A stretch of 35,508 nucleotides of DNA, from the NCBI GenBank assembly GCA_964519355.1, contig CAZFJW010000002.1, forward strand, positions 1 to 35,508. The letters run 5' to 3'. The notes below the pieces were generated by a model. It searched no databases and had not been told where the DNA came from. It saw only the letters and a list, made by a program, of their open reading frames with translations. This document shows, in pieces, positions 6,409-29,383 of the stretch. This DNA is from an uncultured Gammaproteobacteria bacterium (GTDB lineage Bacteria; Patescibacteriota; Microgenomatia; Levybacterales; GWA1-39-11). Position numbers and translations under genes: made by a program. How positions within the stretch are numbered: position 1 is the stretch's first letter; each line of letters starts with the position of its first letter.

Positions 6409-6473
6409 TTCAATACAATGGTAACAAATTAAGATTTCGAGAAGAGTGTGAGACTTATTTATTAAAGGAGTAG

Positions 6474-6545
6474 TCGGGGTGGAGGGAATTGAACCCTCTG
6501 CCACACGAACCCGAATCGTGTATGCAACCGATACACTTCACCCCG
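6474..6545 (-). tRNA. tRNA-Pro (anticodon CGG)
   Basis: The reverse complement CGGGGTGAAGTGTATCGGTTGCATACACGATTCGGGTTCGTGTGGCAGAGGGTTCAATTCCCTCCACCCCGA folds as a cloverleaf. Acceptor stem is CGGGGTG/CACCCCG. Anticodon stem is CACGA/TCGTG with loop TTCGGGT (G37). T arm is GAGGG-TTCAATT-CCCTC. CCA is not encoded. Confidence 0.9.
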
Positions 6546-6616
6546 CTTAAGATTAATTATACTATCTCGAGGAGCATTGAAGTAAAAAGTTAAACGTGTC
6601 TTTGATTAAAAAAATG

Positions 6617-6689
6617 CGTCCCCGATAGGAGTCGAACCTACAATCTTTCCCTTAGGACGGGACTGCTCAATCCATTGAGCTACGGGGAC
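6617..6689 (-). tRNA. tRNA-Arg (anticodon CCU)
   Basis: The reverse complement GTCCCCGTAGCTCAATGGATTGAGCAGTCCCGTCCTAAGGGAAAGATTGTAGGTTCGACTCCTATCGGGGACG folds as a cloverleaf. Acceptor stem is GTCCCCG/CGGGGAC. D arm is GCTC/GAGC. The anticodon loop is GTCCTAA. T arm is GTAGG-TTCGACT-CCTAT. Confidence 0.9.
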
Positions 6690-8706: not shown

Positions 8707-9498
8707 ATGGCAATCCCACCTCCAGCTAAGAAAAAAAAGGTTTTTCCCAAGACAAAAAAGGGAATTATCCGCCTTTTTATTGTTCGAACGATTGCAAATT
8801 TTTTAATACTTTTTACTGTCTTTGGAATAATACTTACCTTTGCACCAGCAATTTATTATGAAGTGTCATACCGCATGCTCAAATTGAAGGGGTACGAGTT
8901 TGTGTTATCTGACAATGCACTTGATTCTGAACTCAATAAAATTTTGGATCGTCAAAAAGCACTTGCATCAGGAAGTGCAGAAAAGAGCGAGGAGTTACCT
9001 GATATTTCATTTCTTGAAGCAATCCTTTCTGATGGTACGAGAGCTCAGATTACGCCGAAATCTGTTGATTTCGGAATTGTAATTCCCAAAATCGGTGCGA
9101 ACGAAGAGGTGATAATAAATGTCGATCCTGAAAATCAAGATCAATACAATGAGGTTCTCAAGCACTCTGTTGCGCATGCCAGGGGGTCATCGCTTCCCGG
9201 TCTTGGCGGCTCGACATATCTTTTTGCACATTCAGCCACGACTTTTTGGGATGTAGGGCGGCATAATGCGCTTTTTTATCTCATAAAAGATCTTGAAAAC
9301 GGAGACGATATTGTTGTGTTCTTTGACAGGAAAAGACACAACTATAAAGTGGTAGACAAACAAACGATTGATGCAGAAGACACACATTTTCTTACTACCG
9401 ATAGAGGAGAGGGTGAAGAATTACTCTTGCAGACATGCTGGCCTCCTGGAACCACGCTGAAGCGTCTTGTTGTTATTGCCAAGCCTGTTATAAATTAA
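8707..9498 (+). CDS. Sortase-family transpeptidase
   Basis: It has an N-terminal TM anchor, a catalytic His context (YLFAHS), the LLLQTCWPPG TLxTC-type Cys motif, and a downstream Arg (TLKRLVV). Confidence 0.8.
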   Translation: MAIPPPAKKKKVFPKTKKGIIRLFIVRTIANFLILFTVFGIILTFAPAIYYEVSYRMLKLKGYEFVLSDNALDSELNKILDRQKALASGSAEKSEELPDISFLEAILSDGTRAQITPKSVDFGIVIPKIGANEEVIINVDPENQDQYNEVLKHSVAHARGSSLPGLGGSTYLFAHSATTFWDVGRHNALFYLIKDLENGDDIVVFFDRKRHNYKVVDKQTIDAEDTHFLTTDRGEGEELLLQTCWPPGTTLKRLVVIAKPVIN

Positions 9499-9550
9499 GA
9501 CACTGCATTTCTAATCATAGCTCATAAGAGTTAGCATCATACTTAAAAAC

Positions 9551-9578
9551 TTGACATTTTCTTGTCCTGTAGTATAAT
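9551..9578 (+). promoter_or_regulatory. Near-consensus sigma70-type promoter of the GC-rich unit
   Basis: TTGACA (9551-9556), a 16-nt spacer, then TATAAT (9573-9578). Confidence 0.6.
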
Positions 9579-9634
9579 TCACAATAGCTTTGAGGGATGA
9601 GATACCTCGAAGACTTTCACAGGAGGGATCAGCA

Positions 9635-9751
9635 ATGATCCGTCACAACATCTCGACCAACACGCGCTCCATGAGTGGCTGCCACGACGGCGACGTCGAG
9701 TCGCACCTGCTCGTCCGCGCGACGCCGCCGGCCTTCGCGAATTCCGCGTAA
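9635..9751 (+). CDS. Candidate 38-aa miniprotein (MIRHNISTNTRSMSGCHDGDVESHLLVRATPPAFANSA)
   Basis: AGGAGGG (9621-9627) lies 7 nt upstream of ATG 9635. Hand-counted G+C by codon position is 21/38, 20/38 and 35/38. The ORF is too short for the ORF track. The start codon sits in the loop/3'-arm junction of the hairpin GGATC(9626-30)/GATCC(9637-41). Confidence 0.4.
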   Translation: MIRHNISTNTRSMSGCHDGDVESHLLVRATPPAFANSA

Positions 9752-9956
9752 GAACCCGGCGCCGCCGTAACCCTGTCAGAGCCAGGGAAACGGCACTCCG
9801 GCCCACAAGGCCGGAAACGAGAACGGCGTATTCGTTCACGTGACCCCAAAAGGGTCGCAAATCCAGACGGACTCGTCCGTCACGCGCATCGGGAGATGCA
9901 ACTTCGGGTTCGCCCGCAGGGAGTCTTCCCAACGCTCGAGCCTCCGGGCTCACACC

Positions 9957-9991
9957 GAGGCGGCAGTAACCCTGCCGCCTCTTTCTATTTA
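9957..9991 (+). terminator. Rho-independent terminator
   Basis: GAGGCGGCAG (9957-9966), loop TAACCC, CTGCCGCCTC (9973-9982), then TTTCTATTT. Confidence 0.75.
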
Positions 9992-10004
9992 GAAGACTTT
10001 ACGC

Positions 10005-10033
10005 TTGATTTTATCTTATAGTTTTGTTATAAT
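10005..10033 (+). promoter_or_regulatory. Consensus-like promoter with extended -10; leaderless geometry
   Basis: TTGATT (10005-10010), a 17-nt spacer ending in TGt, then TATAAT (10028-10033). Only 8 nt separate the -10 from ATG 10042. Confidence 0.6.
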
Positions 10034-10041
10034 TCACACTT

Positions 10042-10677
10042 ATGGTTTCTAAGCTATCAGCTTCTAAAAAATTTGACACCCTTGTTGTTTTGGGGAAAAA
10101 CCACAACATCGGCTGGGGCAAGGAAAAAATTGCCCGTGATAAATACAATCTCAGTCCATATTCAAAGATGAATGTACTTGCCGCTGGTGCATTGTATGTA
10201 AGAGGTTTTACCTCTACAATTATTTTTTCAGGCGGAGCAACTTCTGGTGAGGATATTCTTTCTGAAGCAGAAGCTATGAAAATATATCTTAGAACGAGAT
10301 TTTCAAATCATATGATTCCTGATAAAAAAATTATTCTTGAGGCCAGATCTATTAATACAAAAGAAAATGCAAAATATACAGGGTTAATTGTAAACGAATA
10401 CAAATTCAAGAAAATTGGACTTCTTACTCTTGGATTTCATTCAAGCAGAGCTGAAAAATTCTTCAAGAATGAAGGTATGAAAGTTACAGTTCTTCACGCT
10501 GAAGAAATAATTCGCGAATATGTAAAGTCGTACACTCCATATGTTACAAGACATCTAAGAACTCAAACAGTACGGTTTGAAGTAGTAAAGGAAAAAGTAC
10601 TCGGAAATATCATAAAAGTAGATAGAAATAATTATCTTTTTGGTGCACTTACTCGTCTCACCAGATCAGGTGCATAA
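10042..10677 (+). CDS. DUF218 (YdcF/SanA/ElyC-like) domain protein
   Basis: The pattern LVVLGKN...IIFSGGATSGEDILSEAEAMKIYL...ILEARSINTKENAKYT matches the DUF218 GG...SEA..M..YL...E..S.NT.EN layout. Confidence 0.75.
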   Translation: MVSKLSASKKFDTLVVLGKNHNIGWGKEKIARDKYNLSPYSKMNVLAAGALYVRGFTSTIIFSGGATSGEDILSEAEAMKIYLRTRFSNHMIPDKKIILEARSINTKENAKYTGLIVNEYKFKKIGLLTLGFHSSRAEKFFKNEGMKVTVLHAEEIIREYVKSYTPYVTRHLRTQTVRFEVVKEKVLGNIIKVDRNNYLFGALTRLTRSGA

Positions 10678-12493: not shown

Positions 12494-12531
12494 GAAGGTA
12501 ATTGGAATTACAGATAGAAATTGAGGAATAT

Positions 12532-12542
12532 TGTAATATAAT
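12532..12542 (+). promoter_or_regulatory. Putative -10 region for the GC-rich cassette
   Basis: TGTAATATAAT includes TATAAT at 12537-12542. The -35 is weak. The GC-rich sequence starts within about 10 nt downstream. Confidence 0.35.
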
Positions 12543-12641
12543 CACCAGAGAACAAGAGTTTGAAGTGTGGCGTGCGGTCTCTGACTGCTGCCACAGGGAG
12601 AATGCTCGTTACCAATTCGTGATGAAGGAGAGGACTTTCTT

Positions 12642-12965
12642 ATGTCGATCTACTATCCCAAGCACCATGAGTGCGGTGGGGAGATCCAGATGTGGCCGAA
12701 GGGTTTTGGCCTGTGCCTATTGTGCGGATATCGCATCAAGCCAGCCGAAGCTCCCGATCCCAAATGGAGAGAGTTCAGTGTGATCCACATCCATCCGCCG
12801 ATCACCCAAGAAGTCTTGGATGAGACTGATTCGTTCAACGAGGAGCACCGGCAGAGACTTGATCTCGCCGGCCTCACGCCGAATCTCATCCCAGCAGTTC
12901 TTGAGATCGATGCGCAAAACCTTGAAGGCAGGGCTCAGTTGCCCTTTCTTCGGCCATCCGAGTAG
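12642..12965 (+). CDS. Miniprotein A (107 aa) with a zinc-ribbon-like HxxC...CxxC motif
   Basis: GAAGGAGAGG (12624-12633) lies 8 nt before ATG 12642. The sequence reads KHHECGGEIQMWPKGFGLCLLCGYRI. Hand-counted GC3 is 70/107. Confidence 0.6.
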   Translation: MSIYYPKHHECGGEIQMWPKGFGLCLLCGYRIKPAEAPDPKWREFSVIHIHPPITQEVLDETDSFNEEHRQRLDLAGLTPNLIPAVLEIDAQNLEGRAQLPFLRPSE

Positions 12966-12974
12966 GAGGCTGGG

Positions 12975-13223
12975 TTGGCGCTATCGCAAAATGGTCGGGG
13001 GCATGTTGTCCTGATTCTTGAAGACTTTGAGGTCGTGGCTCTTCCGCCATTTACTCGAAGAACCATCAGTTCAGAACTTGCCGAATTTATCGCGCAGCAC
13101 GCGCGAAGGACTCGGCTCAATGGAGACTGGAGAGATCGTGACCATCATGCCACAACCGGTGCGAACACCGGGGCCGTCCCTGCCGGGACTCATTCCTGGG
13201 ATCATTCCCAGGCCCCGGCGTAA
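12975..13223 (+). CDS. Candidate miniprotein B1 (82 aa, TTG start)
   Basis: AGGAGG (12964-12969) lies 5 nt before TTG 12975. The N-terminal half looks protein-like (HVVLILEDFEVVALPPFTRRTISSELAEFIAQHARR). It overlaps alternative frames from 13120 onward. Confidence 0.4.
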   Translation: MALSQNGRGHVVLILEDFEVVALPPFTRRTISSELAEFIAQHARRTRLNGDWRDRDHHATTGANTGAVPAGTHSWDHSQAPA

Positions 13224-13326
13224 TCCGACGCGTCCGCATGAACCGCGTCCTCGTCCAGGCGATCCCCAGGGACCAACGTTCCCTGCAGATCCGCCGCCAG
13301 GTGAACCGCCTTCAAGGAGGGGTTAG
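13120..13326 (+). CDS. Candidate Pro-rich miniprotein B2 (alternative frame)
   Basis: GAAGGA lies 9 nt before ATG 13120, and the TAG stop abuts ATG 13327. However, GC3 is only 12/30 over 13219-13308, which argues against this frame in its 3' part. Confidence 0.25.
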   Translation: METGEIVTIMPQPVRTPGPSLPGLIPGIIPRPRRNPTRPHEPRPRPGDPQGPTFPADPPPGEPPSRRG

Positions 13327-13330
13327 ATGA
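13238..13330 (+). CDS. Candidate 30-aa ORF B3 (MNRVLVQAIPRDQRSLQIRRQVNRLQGGVR)
   Basis: This frame has the highest GC3 locally (26/29 over 13223-13309). Its TGA overlaps the next ATG (ATGA at 13327-13330). No obvious SD. Confidence 0.3.
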   Translation: MNRVLVQAIPRDQRSLQIRRQVNRLQGGVR

Positions 13331-13449
13331 GTTGTCCACATTGTCTCGGGCGTATCCTGCGTGAAGCAGGACGCATGCCGCAAATCGGCGGAAATAATAC
13401 TCCGCCTCAACAGCCGTCAACACCACCTCCTCCCAAGGAGAAAGACTAA
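13327..13449 (+). CDS. Candidate miniprotein C (40 aa) with an N-terminal CPHC knuckle
   Basis: AAGGAGGGG lies 5 nt before ATG 13327. The product is MSCPHCLGRILREAGRMPQIGGNNTPPQQPSTPPPPKEKD. GC3 is low (17/40), so the call is uncertain. Confidence 0.4.
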   Translation: MSCPHCLGRILREAGRMPQIGGNNTPPQQPSTPPPPKEKD

Positions 13450-13450
13450 C

Positions 13451-13615
13451 ATGGGAATGACCGTTCCGCCACCAAGAGTATGTCGCAAGTGCCTGAGTGC
13501 GCTTGAGACGTACATTGCCGCGAATCGCCCCGGAGTTCCCACCTGCACTGGTTGCGGGTGGAGAATCGGGCCGAGAAGGTCTCGAAAGAGAAAAAGGAAT
13601 CGAGGGGATCCCTGA
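13451..13615 (+). CDS. Miniprotein D (54 aa): CxxC-x17-CxxC zinc ribbon with a basic tail
   Basis: AAGGAGAAAG lies 6 nt before ATG 13451. The product is MGMTVPPPRVCRKCLSALETYIAANRPGVPTCTGCGWRIGPRRSRKRKRNRGDP. An in-frame GTG at 13361 is an alternative start (track ORF 13361-13615). Confidence 0.55.
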   Translation: MGMTVPPPRVCRKCLSALETYIAANRPGVPTCTGCGWRIGPRRSRKRKRNRGDP

Positions 13616-13833
13616 TGCCTGCCATTCAAGGGCCACCGCCAAAATTTTGTCCCAAATGTCATGGGACGATGATTGTCGAGCACGACTGGCACGGTACCTA
13701 CGGGTACTGTATTTTGTGCGGTTATCACCACGAGGTGCTGACCTCGCCGCCTATCGATCTGGCGGCAGAAGAGGCGGCGCTGCCTCAGCGTCAAAGGAGG
13801 CGTATGCCCTCACATGCCAAGCAGCGGCTTTAG
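13615..13833 (+). CDS. Miniprotein E (72 aa): CxxC-x16-CxxC zinc ribbon
   Basis: GAGGGG lies 7 nt before ATG 13615, which overlaps the previous stop (TGATG). The sequence reads MPAIQGPPPKFCPKCHGTMIVEHDWHGTYGYCILCGYHH... The track ORF 13552-13833 is in the same frame. Confidence 0.6.
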   Translation: MPAIQGPPPKFCPKCHGTMIVEHDWHGTYGYCILCGYHHEVLTSPPIDLAAEEAALPQRQRRRMPSHAKQRL

Positions 13834-13857
13834 GGCCTGCACCATTCATCACGCCAA

Positions 13858-13884
13858 TGCTCCCCCGCCGCCAGCGGGGGAGCA
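13858..13884 (+). terminator. GC-rich hairpin terminator closing the cassette
   Basis: TGCTCCCCCGC (13858-13868), loop CGCCA, GCGGGGGAGCA (13874-13884): 11 perfect bp. An AT/T-rich tract follows a few nt later (CTAATATTTTTATAATTT). Confidence 0.7.
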
Positions 13885-14145
13885 CCATCTAATATTTTTA
13901 TAATTTCCGAGGAATTTTTAGTCCTCATCACTATAACCAGTACAAAGTAGAACAAGGAACTTTTCATAGAAAAAAATTCGCGCCTGGTTCGTCCCATAAC
14001 AACATTTAAAATTCCATTTTTAGCTATAAAAATTGCGCCGTTTTCGGTGAAAACAGGCGCATAATAAAAGTGATTCACTTGTACTAAATAGACACTACTT
14101 TGTATCAGTTGACCCTACCAGTAGTGTTGCGCATATAATGACTAC

Positions 14146-24471: not shown

Positions 24472-25971
24472 ATGACGGCAGAACACGGGAGTTTCATAAA
24501 TGGCATTGGTGAGAATTCGGAGGGGGCGAAAATTTTTTATCCAGGTAAAGCTCAGATGGGATTTGGTGGGTTGACAGGCTTGGAGGGGGTCGATTCGGAT
24601 TTCTTCGCGGCCATCCCTAACACAGCTCCCGAGTTAAATGGCAGCCTTACGGGTGAAAATGGCATTACACCTCATGCGGATAGTCAGGGTGGGTTGTTTG
24701 GTCGTGTAAATCATGATGTGATTGTAGAACCAGGGCTTGATCTTTCCACTCCCGTTGAAGTATCTGGGCGAGATGGAGAAGTCAAACAAGGTGCCTTTGA
24801 AAGAACCAACCTCGCTTTATTAAATGTAATTGTTCAGCAAAGAGATGAATATTCTGGAATTAGTGGATTGGCTGCCAATATTGAAGAGCATGGCATGATC
24901 CATCCGCTTCTTGTTGCAAGATATGATGCAGATGGAGCGCGTGATTATCTTGTTGCAGCATACGGAACATACGGTAAAAAGGTATCTGCTGATCAGAGAA
25001 AAAGATTACCTGATCTGGTAAAGACTACCGAAAACGGAAACGAAACTTATTATATTGTTATAGCTGGGCACAGAAGATTGAGGGCCTTGAGGATGCTTCA
25101 GAAAAAAACAAGCATTCTTCAAATAGTGAATGACATTGATCCATTTGAGGCTCTAGAAATCCAGGCATCGGAAAATACTGCAAAACTTCCGAAAGATTAT
25201 GAAAGAGCAGAATCAAACGGAGATCTTCATTCCATTTTAAAAGCACGTGATCCGAAGTTGAGAATTGAAAAATTTGCAACAAGAGTAGGTCATCCGGTGG
25301 CGGTTGTAAGAAAAGACTTGAGGTACTACGGCCTTCCTCCTGAGGTAAAAAACTTTGTCGTACCTCGCAACAGACGTGATAGCGGTGAAGGTGACACTGA
25401 GATTCCCGATCAACCACTCATGGAATTTAATATTGCTTGTCAATTGGGAAGACTTGTAGAAGTGGGAGCAAGTTTTGATGATATTTTATTCTTGGCAAAA
25501 AGATTTTTTGTTGAGAATATTACAAATGAGAAGACTGCGAGTAGAAGAGTGACGCAATATATCAGAGATTCAATCGTTCACGGAGGAGCAGATATGACAG
25601 ATATTTTCGGATTTAATGTACGACGGGTTGCTGAAAATACACGTACCAGACAAGTGGCCAAGACATTTATCGATCCAGCATTGGCTGGATTGGGATTATT
25701 GGAAAGGGTGCGAATTGCAAAAGAAAATGGATTTGGAGGCGAAAAAGATGACAAATTGTCTTTTGCTGCGGCGGGAGGATATATTAAAAGACTGGCTGAG
25801 CTTGCTGATGAACTTACTGATGCCCTTCATGAGACTATGGATGCTGATGCGAGAAATGAGATACACACACGCCTTCAAAGGCTTAGGGATGCTGCTGATA
25901 TTGTAGCAAGAGAGTATGAGGGCGGTGCCCCAAAAGAGAGAGGCCTTTTAGACCTTCTAGAAAAAGATTAG
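24472..25971 (+). CDS. ParB/Srx N-terminal-domain protein with long N- and C-terminal extensions
   Basis: The central region GMIHPLLVARYD...YYIVIAGHRRLRALRML...LEIQASENTAKLP matches ParB box motifs (PI/LxV, GxRRxxA, EN). No parA is adjacent. Confidence 0.7.
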   Translation: MTAEHGSFINGIGENSEGAKIFYPGKAQMGFGGLTGLEGVDSDFFAAIPNTAPELNGSLTGENGITPHADSQGGLFGRVNHDVIVEPGLDLSTPVEVSGRDGEVKQGAFERTNLALLNVIVQQRDEYSGISGLAANIEEHGMIHPLLVARYDADGARDYLVAAYGTYGKKVSADQRKRLPDLVKTTENGNETYYIVIAGHRRLRALRMLQKKTSILQIVNDIDPFEALEIQASENTAKLPKDYERAESNGDLHSILKARDPKLRIEKFATRVGHPVAVVRKDLRYYGLPPEVKNFVVPRNRRDSGEGDTEIPDQPLMEFNIACQLGRLVEVGASFDDILFLAKRFFVENITNEKTASRRVTQYIRDSIVHGGADMTDIFGFNVRRVAENTRTRQVAKTFIDPALAGLGLLERVRIAKENGFGGEKDDKLSFAAAGGYIKRLAELADELTDALHETMDADARNEIHTRLQRLRDAADIVAREYEGGAPKERGLLDLLEKD

Positions 25972-27448: not shown

Positions 27449-29383
27449 ATGGCCGAAGCAGCACTACAATTTCCAGGCACAATGCCACAGCAGGGCGAAG
27501 TACCAGGAGCCCAACAACCACTTGAATTAGCAGGATCAACTATGCCTGGAGCACCCGTTCAGACAGAGGGCGGCCGTGGAGGTTTTTTGGGTAAATTATT
27601 TGGAAAAGGCGAGAAGGGCGCAGATGCTCCTGCAGCTCAAGGAATTTCTCCTATGACGCTTCCAGGAAGACCAGATATTGCAGCAGGCATGACAGACGTA
27701 GCTGGAAAAATTGGTCTGAATGTAGAGCCTGTTATTGGAGGAGCTCCAAGAGTTACGGTCCCGACACCTGATAGCGGCATGGTCATTGGTGCAGATACAC
27801 CTTCAAATGGAATTATTGTAGATGAGGGTGCGCCCAAAATAATTGTTAAAAGACCATGGGAGGGTGGAAGAAGACCATCTGGGGCACAGGCAGGTGAAGC
27901 AGCAACAGATAGTGTTTCACAAATGGCTGCTGGGCAGGCTGAATTCGCTTCTCAAGATGGCAGATCAGGTGATGTTGGACTTGGGAATACAGTAGGAAGT
28001 AATGAGTCTGGTGATCCTGCAGCAGCACAGTCAGCAGATGAAGTTGTTGCAGATGACACAAATGCAGCGGCTGGACAAGGTTTGGAAAATACTGGTGTAA
28101 CAAGCGGCATGTCTGAGACTGCAGCTGTAGTCGGAGACGCGGCAATTACATCGGGCGTAGAAGAAGTAGTACGCGATGAGTCAGCAGAGGATCCAGCCCA
28201 AGGAGATTCTGGTGAGCCAGATATGTCAGGAGTTGGAGTGCCCCCTCCGGGTGAGAAATATCCGAATATGGCTGCTCCTATGACCAGTGTCTGGAGTAAA
28301 CCAAGCGCGGGTGAGCCAAGTGTTACCTCAGATCCTGATTCAGGAGTTGCAGCACCTGCCCCAAGAGAATTAACACAAGAAGAGCAGGATGCTCGGGAAG
28401 ATAGAGAAGAAGCAGAAGCAGACAGACAAAAATTAATAGATGAAGGTTTGGGAGAAGATCCAGCCCCGACAGAAGGAGCATCTGGAGACACTGCGCCAGC
28501 TATTGATTCTGCAGCTTCTGGAGATGCACTTGCTGCTCAGATGAGGGATCAGGGAGTGATCACTGGGGATGGAGAGGATCAGATTATTAATGCAACTCAT
28601 ATTGCCGCTGCCCCCGAGACACCACAAGCACCTGAAATGACAGATGAAGTAGTTGGTCAGGCAGAAGAAACGGTAGATGCCAGCGCTCCAGCCGAAGGCA
28701 TGACCGCAGATCCAGTACTCGATACAGCAGAGGAACCAGTTTTACCTGCAGAGCAGCCAGTAGTTGTCGGTGAAGAGCCAGCTCAAGCTCCAGCAGCTGA
28801 GATGGTGTCAAATGCTACTGTTCAAGATGCTGATGATACCTCCGGACAATCAGAAGATGGTGCGTCTGATGATGATGGAGATTCTGGTGATGCAGTCAGT
28901 AAAGATCCATACAGAGCGGCAATGGAAAAAGATCCAGCAAATGATCCTGCAGCAATTTTAGAAGATCTCCACAAGAATGCTGCTCCATCAACAGTTGATA
29001 ACATCGGAAATGTTCTTTCTGGAATCAAAGAAACAAATCAAGCATTACAAGAAGAAACAGAAAGACTTGCTGAAATGCCATTGCGGGATGCAATACAGGA
29101 ACTGCGAAAAAAAGACGAAACACAAACACAACAGCTCATAACAAGACTAGCTTGGGCACATGCTTTTAAAAACCTTGAAAAACAAGGAATCACCACACTT
29201 TCTGCAGTTGAAGATACAAAAAAAACTATTGAAGAGATTCGGGGAATGGAAGAATTATTGAAGCTTTTTCTTGAAGAGTCTGGTGATCATAAGGGAGGGT
29301 GGGAAACAACACAAGGACTTACGCCTCAAGCCGAAGAGCCAAATGATCCATCAGGTGCAACACTTATTGCAACCGCTGCATAG
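27449..29383 (+). CDS. Highly acidic, Ala/Gly/Pro/Glu/Asp-rich (probably disordered) protein with a helical C-terminal ~130 aa
   Basis: 644-aa ORF whose composition is clearly GC-richer than its neighbours. No family recognised. TTGACT...TATATT (27437-27442) lies 6 nt before the ATG. Confidence 0.6.
   Translation: MAEAALQFPGTMPQQGEVPGAQQPLELAGSTMPGAPVQTEGGRGGFLGKLFGKGEKGADAPAAQGISPMTLPGRPDIAAGMTDVAGKIGLNVEPVIGGAPRVTVPTPDSGMVIGADTPSNGIIVDEGAPKIIVKRPWEGGRRPSGAQAGEAATDSVSQMAAGQAEFASQDGRSGDVGLGNTVGSNESGDPAAAQSADEVVADDTNAAAGQGLENTGVTSGMSETAAVVGDAAITSGVEEVVRDESAEDPAQGDSGEPDMSGVGVPPPGEKYPNMAAPMTSVWSKPSAGEPSVTSDPDSGVAAPAPRELTQEEQDAREDREEAEADRQKLIDEGLGEDPAPTEGASGDTAPAIDSAASGDALAAQMRDQGVITGDGEDQIINATHIAAAPETPQAPEMTDEVVGQAEETVDASAPAEGMTADPVLDTAEEPVLPAEQPVVVGEEPAQAPAAEMVSNATVQDADDTSGQSEDGASDDDGDSGDAVSKDPYRAAMEKDPANDPAAILEDLHKNAAPSTVDNIGNVLSGIKETNQALQEETERLAEMPLRDAIQELRKKDETQTQQLITRLAWAHAFKNLEKQGITTLSAVEDTKKTIEEIRGMEELLKLFLEESGDHKGGWETTQGLTPQAEEPNDPSGATLIATAA

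Follow-up and report, generated by a model that had tools for sequence, protein, structure and literature searches.

The staphylococcal RNAIII combines a short open reading frame (ORF) near its 5' end with a conserved 3' domain of many hairpins. A predicted transcription unit of comparable layout was found in the AT-rich genome of a member of the Patescibacteria (candidate phyla radiation, CPR), with a sortase gene on one side and a DUF218 gene on the other. The DNA analysed, hereafter the window, is a stretch of 35,508 nucleotides (contig CAZFJW010000002.1 of assembly GCA_964519355.1) with an overall G+C content of 40 %; the unit is a predicted transcript of approximately 405 nt (9585-9990) with 62 % G+C. 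Like the peptide-encoding regulatory RNAs RNAIII (hld), SgrS/SgrT and SR1/SR1P, it would be transcribed on its own from promoter to terminator over a few hundred nucleotides; it also shares with this class a short 5' ORF behind a good Shine-Dalgarno (SD) sequence, a chain of many hairpins and the best conservation in the 3' hairpin domain. It differs from this class in lacking any sequence or Rfam relationship to it, in an ORF (ORF-A) without protein-level constraint, in the absence of recurrent C-rich loop motifs on inspection by eye, and in a distribution over two closely related lineages of Patescibacteria only. The RNAIII class is the nearest architectural analogue, an analogy in which architecture alone is compared. 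Long GC-rich intergenic regions (GC-IGR) in AT-rich genomes, as collected in the GC-IGR and DIMPL approach, are enriched in structured non-coding RNAs (PMC8723152, PMC11109978, PMC6429828). The unit is such a region, but the RNAs of those surveys were accepted on covariation across many homologues, whereas two allele types and one covarying hairpin are available here. No counterpart of the unit was found among known RNA and protein families, and it has to be seen as a candidate for a new, narrowly distributed RNA, probably non-coding or of dual function. The explanation that we favour, tentatively and with slightly less than even confidence, is a lineage-specific RNA gene whose product would be the RNA itself, with the conserved 3' hairpin array as the functional module.

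The signals that delimit the unit are clear. A sigma-70-type promoter (TTGACA-16-TATAAT, 9551-9578), already proposed in an earlier note made from the sequence alone, matches the consensus in 12 of 12 positions and would place the transcription start at about 9585. An intrinsic terminator (9957-9990) closes the unit; its stem of 10 pairs (9957-9981), 8 of them G-C, carries the loop UAACC and is followed by the T-tract TTTCTATTT; stem length and T-tract agree with that note. Promoter, SD sequence and terminator share one orientation, and all features of the unit given below lie on the + strand. Related loci, designated by L-numbers (L006, L011, L041 etc.), were recovered from independent assemblies by exact-protein look-ups and by synteny searches, the latter via DUF218 in GTDB genomes and JGI metagenomes and via sortase homologues. 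The terminator is invariant across all haplotypes; both promoter hexamers are intact in L041, and L045 has TGTAAT. The unit divides into a 5' part (9585-9751) with a leader and ORF-A, and a 3' part (9752-9990) with the hairpin array and the terminator. The G+C content given earlier was correct for 9721-9780 (41 of 60 positions), but too high for the whole transcript (68 % instead of 62 %).

The comparison of folding energies with dinucleotide shuffles, suggested in the earlier note, revealed an excess of structure. The minimum free energy (MFE) of the whole unit was -185 kcal/mol versus -144.6±6.3 kcal/mol in the shuffles, a z-score of -6.4 for the + strand, the fold of which includes G-U pairs; the minus strand yielded a z of -4.4. 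The excess is confined to the 3' part: z-values of -6.3 for the array (9752-9956), -7.6 for array plus terminator (9752-9991) and -6.3 for the array of the L006 allele stand against -1.6, hence no excess structure, for the 5' part (9585-9751) and +0.5 for ORF-A alone (9635-9751). Among 353 sliding 200-nt segments over the 35 kb, with a mean z of -0.32 and a standard deviation of 1.53, the extremes were 9752-9951 and 9952-10151. Eight perfect hairpins of at least 5 bp are present in 9752-9991, with 1.34±1.05 expected, and none of 1000 dinucleotide shuffles reached this number. The count in the 5' part was at chance level. Over the related loci, the raw hairpin count was weakly discriminating, with a high background of AT hairpins. 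The earlier caution that GC-rich DNA forms hairpins by chance applies to the 5' part; the 3' part lies far beyond the shuffles.

The array consists of 10-11 short GC hairpins, several with UNCG or GNRA loops, that are connected by short A/C-rich linkers and have nearly all perfect Watson-Crick stems with few G-U pairs. They are located at 9764-9794 (two-tier), 9797-9815, 9821-9837, 9840-9858, 9866-9881, 9886-9899, 9905-9916, 9919-9930 and 9938-9951. All ten hairpins listed in the earlier note exist within 1-2 nt of their proposed positions, and its CUCG, GGGA, UUCG and UCCG loops were all found; two of the ten, 9626-9641 and 9690-9704, are statistically unremarkable because the 5' part, in which they lie, is not above chance. 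The long-range pairing proposed between the two ends of the unit is present as a 7-bp complement (9609-9615/9922-9928), but neither the MFE fold nor the consensus fold contains it, the local hairpin 9919-9930 competes with it, and in other strains it has lost one pair without compensation. In the 5' leader, the hairpin UUUGAGGG...CCUCGAAG (9588-9612) appears in the MFE, centroid and consensus folds, and two of its pairs vary between U-A and U-G without being broken. The motif GTAACCCTG occurs twice in the unit and was not enriched in the window.

Two allele types were distinguished. Elements of the window type are identical or 97.6-99.8 % identical in a dozen contigs, and the identical element was present in several independent ENA, Logan and JGI samples. 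The second type (L006/L041) belongs to a lineage with approximately 85 % genome identity to the window. A stretch of 46 nt, a length not divisible by three, is missing from it; this is the module 9816-9861, which carries hairpins 9821-9837 and 9840-9858 and is present in the window-type allele only; instead of the hairpin GACGGA-CUCG-UCCGUC (9866-9881) it has GGAAGG-GAAA-CCUUCC. In L041, a further 29 nt are missing inside the 5' ORF-A. The DUF218 genes of the window and L006 encode an identical protein and differ in 60 of 636 sites, 55 of them third positions (26 % of all third positions). The shared 3' array differs in 4 of 170 sites (2.4 %), with a single difference among the 106 sites of 9885-9990, and ORF-A in about 8 of 111 sites plus an indel. 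Between the two haplotype groups of the window type, 5.2 % of the DUF218 third positions, 1.3 % of the array and 5.1 % of ORF-A were changed. In both comparisons the array is under constraint at the nucleotide level, evolving at approximately 0.1-0.25 of the neutral rate. The ORF-A region is near neutral within the population and changes at about one third of the neutral rate between the lineages, a pattern that reflects either weak constraint or an exchange of the element between the lineages after their split. Changes on the window lineage, polarised by hand against L006, comprised five from AT to GC and one from GC to AT, the opposite of the decay expected in an AT-rich genome.

Whether a protein is made from the unit was judged on ORF-A (9635-9751; 38 codons, MIRHNISTNTRSMSGCHDGDVESHLLVRATPPAFANSA). 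The SD sequence GGAGG (9622-9626) is located 8 nt upstream of its ATG, and a hairpin seen in sequence and fold (9626-9641) half-buries the AUG at 9635; this region (9622-9641) is invariant in all haplotypes. The G+C content of the three codon positions is 0.54/0.51/0.90, and the codon adaptation index (CAI) of 0.32, versus 0.63-0.70 for the genes of the window, reflects host-rare codons. A small-protein gene, with the 38-aa peptide as a possibly fast-evolving product and the array as a protective and terminating 3' untranslated region (UTR), would account for the strong SD sequence, for a third-position G+C (GC3) of 0.90 that coincides with the limits of ORF-A, for the almost invariant SD, AUG and most of the first eight codons, for length differences of 3 nt inside ORF-A that preserve the frame, and for the same stop-codon position in the window and L006. 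The substitutions, however, are not those of a protein gene: window and L006 differ at codon positions 1/2/3 in 4/3/1 sites, with 0 synonymous and 7 non-synonymous codons, compared with 5/0/55 in DUF218, 32/13/119 in a 367-aa gene and 4/4/11 to 7/4/14 in small zinc-ribbon ORFs of a second GC-rich island of the window. ORF-A also changes at about the neutral rate within the population and is frameshifted by the 29-nt deletion in L041; it had no match in NCBIfam or PADLOC, and the L006 read-through frame that contains it had no counterpart in Pfam or in a tblastn against plasmids. A mere stabiliser would not need loops and linkers that are conserved ten times below the synonymous rate. A small-protein gene is in our view unlikely. 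The coding periodicity that the earlier note had offered as an alternative is real in ORF-A, but the ORF does not evolve like a protein and probably encodes none that is conserved. By its composition it looks like a relic of, or a capture from, a high-GC coding sequence, which may be translated and is not maintained as a protein.

For the unit as a whole, a protein-coding gene on either strand was rejected: no frame is kept across the alleles, and the changes in ORF-A are not concentrated at third positions; a period of three was the only coding feature encountered. In six-frame translations, no frame was open across all alleles, which differ by indels of 46 nt and 29 nt; in the 3' part, the 46-nt indel shifts the frame. 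Within the array a single long + frame exists, that with high GC3; in L006 it lacks a start codon, and it runs past the T-tract of the terminator before its stop. An ORF on the minus strand was called at 117, 73 or 54 aa depending on the strain. A spurious minus-strand ORF of 124 aa was compared with a set of 5.8 billion proteins, a search meant to catch homologous elements miscalled as genes, and retrieved only its own cluster from contigs with the same context. When the high-GC3 frame of 73 codons was compared by phmmer with 1.84 billion representatives, two matches appeared (E 4e-8 and E 8e-4), the better one a 3235-aa protein aligned in 23 stretches; both were judged compositional. Pfam, NCBIfam, PADLOC and tblastn searches (plasmids) with the high-GC3 conceptual translations retrieved nothing. 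A type I toxin-antitoxin system of the hok/sok kind was also discarded: the ORF-A peptide has no hydrophobic stretch by inspection, and a promoter-like site on the minus strand was not found in the unit.

Several observations weigh against a lineage-specific RNA gene. A second stretch of the unit (9845-9950) has a period-3 G+C content of 0.8-0.9 in another phase, and 3 of the 5 substitutions in its frame fall on third positions. The array is a chain of independent hairpins without long-range helices, which is atypical of complex folded RNAs. The low divergence between window and L006 could be due to recent recombination instead of selection. The distribution is very narrow, with only two closely related lineages found; in a sister species whose flanking proteins are 80 % identical, the site is taken by an unrelated RNA, and in two other relatives by a protein gene. 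Covariation, evaluated on a consensus structure of 117 pairs with 7 distinct sequences of the two allele types, is also limited. Compensatory changes affected 4 of the 117 pairs, all in hairpin 9866-9881, where both sides changed and still pair; they stem from a single event, the replacement by a hairpin with a GNRA loop. A further 8 pairs had one-sided, wobble-compatible changes, 6 had disruptive single changes, mostly in L041, and 94 never vary, while 99.1 % of all cells are paired. This pattern is compatible with structure and has little statistical power.

In L006 the two periodic segments fall into one frame, which is interrupted by one stop codon on the + strand; on the minus strand, 84 codons are open. 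A single coding fragment of about 100 codons as their common source would fit this arrangement, and the period-3 composition is interpreted as a relic of coding ancestry. The unit might be the functionless, decaying remainder of a horizontally acquired high-GC fragment, e.g. a piece of a pseudogene, that came to lie behind a promoter. Besides the common frame in L006, the alien composition and codon use, the variable locus, the roughly neutral evolution of the ORF-A region within the population and the degraded appearance of L041, with its deletion and two stem-breaking changes, are in line with decay. The conservation of the array, however, far exceeds that of synonymous sites and surpasses even that of the whole DUF218 gene, and former coding DNA leaves 8 instead of 1.3 perfect hairpins and z-values of -6 to -7.6 unexplained. 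Decay is also at odds with the five AT-to-GC changes versus one in the other direction and with a consensus promoter and a perfect terminator kept in both lineages; in addition, searches with conceptual translations found no donor-like protein. We regard a decaying fragment as improbable, to about the same degree as a small-protein gene.

The unit could be a foreign high-GC RNA gene that is exchanged among related Patescibacteria by recombination and kept for a function at the RNA level, which we consider quite unlikely. If true, it would explain the approximately neutral polymorphism of the ORF together with a species divergence about threefold below neutral and a constant constraint on the array at roughly 0.25 of the neutral rate. 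One candidate function is that of a nuclease-resistant decoy or sponge. Another candidate is suggested by analogy to the RNA toxins of the CreT type, in which a strong SD and an AUG precede a few rare codons and then a hairpin, and which sequester a rare tRNA. A CreT-like, translation-dependent sequestration of rare tRNAs or of ribosomes may be considered because the consensus promoter and the strong SD drive an ORF made almost wholly of host-rare codons. The likeness, a resemblance only, extends to the strong promoter, the strong SD, the short ORF of host-rare codons (CAI 0.32) and the stable hairpins that follow. Unlike in CreT systems, CRISPR-Cas genes or a creA-like antitoxin were not found near the unit, and among the 38 codons of ORF-A no single rare codon is repeated in tandem.

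Short palindromic, GC-rich hairpins arrayed at the 3' end of a transcript are also known from REP/BIME clusters and 3' stabilisers, e.g. the REP sequences by which upstream mRNA is stabilised. In the unit, in contrast, all hairpins are distinct, loops and linkers are conserved, a dedicated consensus promoter is present, and the element is single-copy in the DNA covered, i.e. the 35-kb window and the related loci. A 9-bp direct repeat GAAGACTTT at 9609-9617 and 9992-10000 brackets the GC-rich body. Only about 6-7 bp are common to its copies in other alleles, and terminal inverted repeats were not seen by eye; the repeat may be a faded insertion scar or chance. An element that acts at the DNA level, be it REP/BIME-like or MITE-like palindromes, a recombination site or a single-strand origin, with promoter and terminator incidental, would agree with this flanking repeat, with stems that form perfect Watson-Crick palindromes in nearly every case and contain few G-U pairs, with the well-folding minus strand (z -4.4), with the gain and loss of hairpin modules between alleles and with the several assemblies that break at the 5' edge. 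Such an element is nevertheless very unlikely: every hairpin has a different sequence, the flanking repeat shrinks in the other alleles, no terminal inverted repeats accompany it, and promoter, SD and terminator are co-oriented. No same-strand 11-mer of the unit has a second copy elsewhere in the 35-kb window, and nhmmer matched the unit only at the orthologous site among the related loci collected at that time. A REP/BIME or MITE-type repeat, for which no dispersed copies were found in the 35-kb window or the related loci, was dismissed. Transposase, integrase and Rep genes were not found nearby, nor were reverse transcriptase, Cas or TnpB genes among the window genes near the unit.

A length of approximately 400 nt, the high G+C content in an AT-rich genome and an own promoter and terminator would suit RNase P RNA or transfer-messenger RNA (tmRNA). 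A divergent housekeeping RNA (RNase P RNA, tmRNA, signal recognition particle (SRP) RNA or 6S RNA) missed by the models is yet extremely improbable. Rfam 15 at the gathering threshold recovered only two tRNAs from the whole window. At E<=10 the region 9400-10150 and L041 1-440 had chance-level matches of at most 19 bits to unrelated eukaryotic and archaeal families, in a collection that includes RNase P, tmRNA, SRP, 6S, ROOL, GOLLD, OLE, raiA, HEARO, group I/II introns and small ribozymes. ARAGORN detected no tmRNA in the window, L041, L006 or L011. The earlier note, which had found no RNase P, tmRNA, SRP, group I/II intron or hammerhead motifs, was thus borne out. Inspection showed neither tRNA-like pairing of the 5' and 3' ends nor long-range helices of the P4 type, and a housekeeping RNA would be universal, whereas the unit is absent at the locus in a sister species and replaced by a protein gene in others. 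Distant homologues of the unit were not found by blastn against phages and plasmids or in four scans of viral contigs for exact or degenerate motifs, one of them with the stems as N and the loops fixed.

The reading of the 3' 240 nt as a structured RNA is based on the excess of folding energy and hairpins, the nucleotide-level constraint, the lack of a frame common to the alleles, the hairpin swap and the missing family match. The proposal of the earlier note, which had extended to the whole unit, is supported in this part; the 5' third, without excess structure and with a period-3 signal, does not share the support. With homologues in only two close lineages, a structured RNA family is a candidate and not a demonstrated class. 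For the lineage-specific RNA gene we infer the following course. The consensus promoter would drive a transcript of approximately 405 nt that is stopped by the intrinsic terminator. Its functional module would be the 3' 240 nt, about ten stable GC hairpins conserved in stems, loops and linkers, and the array would most likely serve as a platform resistant to nucleases, to which a protein or other RNAs bind. Because loops and linkers are conserved, a specific protein or RNA partner is favoured over a mere block of exonucleases. The upstream genes dsbA-dsbB-VTT-sortase have no terminator-like site of their own ahead of the unit, so that read-through transcripts of the sortase gene would have their 3' end in the array too, as with small RNAs of the 3'-UTR type that have own promoters. 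Target prediction by complementarity was rejected: the number of complementary 11-mers equalled an estimate of the chance expectation, and a crude duplex scan against translation-initiation regions of the window gave no usable information. Of the seven 11-mers of the RNA with a reverse-complement match, three lie in a gene for a 499-aa protein (24472-25971) with a ParB/Noc-like N-terminal domain scoring under the curated cut-offs.

The place between the sortase gene (8707-9498) and the DUF218/YdcF-type gene (10042-10677) is occupied in relatives by unrelated RNA or protein genes and has to be seen as a variable slot, a hotspot of gene turnover. In the sister species L011-L016, with flanking proteins of 80 % identity, a different unit of 294 nt is present. 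It is located in L011 at 2602-2925 (also in L012, L013 and L016), has a promoter TTGACA-17-TATAAT and an own terminator, approximately 48 % G+C as counted from the displayed sequence, and a folding z of -6.2; with no Rfam match it is a second candidate for an orphan structured RNA. Homology between the two RNAs was rejected: the motifs GAUCAGC and GUAAC were shared by eye, but the local alignment score of 22 lay below the shuffle mean of 25.4, and nhmmer retrieved nothing. L044 (2653-3336) and L017 (126-860) have homologous genes for proteins of 227 and 244 aa in the slot; tblastn gave no similarity that would derive the unit from them. In L043 (154-1164), the RNA unit is accompanied by an additional gene of 336 aa, ahead of which 38 bp with the DUF218 promoter are present as a duplicate. 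The contigs of L006, L008, L041, L045 and L051 end at or just upstream of the 5' edge of the element (window about 9537-9641), and divergence in the spacer between sortase gene and promoter (roughly 25 % by eye) far exceeds that of the element; together, breaks and spacer suggest strain heterogeneity.

The DUF218 gene has an own promoter at 10005-10033, which is kept in L011 and L044, both without the GC-rich unit. A leader-peptide attenuator of DUF218 was rejected on the basis of this promoter and of a possible antiterminator of only 6 bp found by inspection. Gene content and closest relatives place the window near Microgenomates/Levybacteria within the Patescibacteria, names also borne by the nearest named homologues of the sortase. 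Proteins with envelope and surface functions are encoded in the wider region: DsbA, DsbB, a VTT/DedA-like protein, Peptidase_M73, an S26 signal peptidase, an RTX-repeat protein, MreC and a penicillin-binding protein (PBP). Genes for tRNA-Pro(CGG) and tRNA-Arg(CCT) are located on the minus strand at 6473-6689, thus G-ending Pro and Arg codons are decoded by the organism.

The second GC-rich island of the window (12540-13890, 53-59 % G+C) has a promoter-like site at 12515-12542, and its end is marked, by eye, at about 13861-13900 by a strong hairpin and a T-tract. The island contains tandem, partly overlapping small ORFs (12642-12965, 13327-13449, 13451-13615 and 13615-13833), mostly with CxxC...CxxC zinc-ribbon motifs and weak matches to Zn_ribbon_RPB9/TFS; searches provided no family assignment. 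These ORFs show a third-position bias between window and L006, i.e. they evolve like real genes, and the last one (13615-13833) is kept with 67-71 % DNA identity in L011 and L017. The L006 lineage has two extra genes of 580 and 152 aa after this island (L006 4292-6034), both lacking in the window. A 644-aa ORF (27449-29383) has a central part of about 50 % G+C and an odd codon-position composition (0.69/0.50/0.25); it belongs to no Pfam family, and its sole match was a sub-threshold, LiaX-like one.

The general importance of the unit is modest for now, because the distribution is very narrow. To our knowledge and in the literature searched, few lineage-specific non-coding RNAs have been described for the CPR/Patescibacteria. 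A strongly promoted, structured and conserved RNA beside envelope genes (Dsb, sortase, DUF218) would offer a way to approach regulation in these reduced episymbionts. The coding-type periodicity points to captured foreign coding DNA as the source of a non-coding RNA, and the unrelated RNA and protein genes at the same site in sister species present a small natural experiment in gene turnover.

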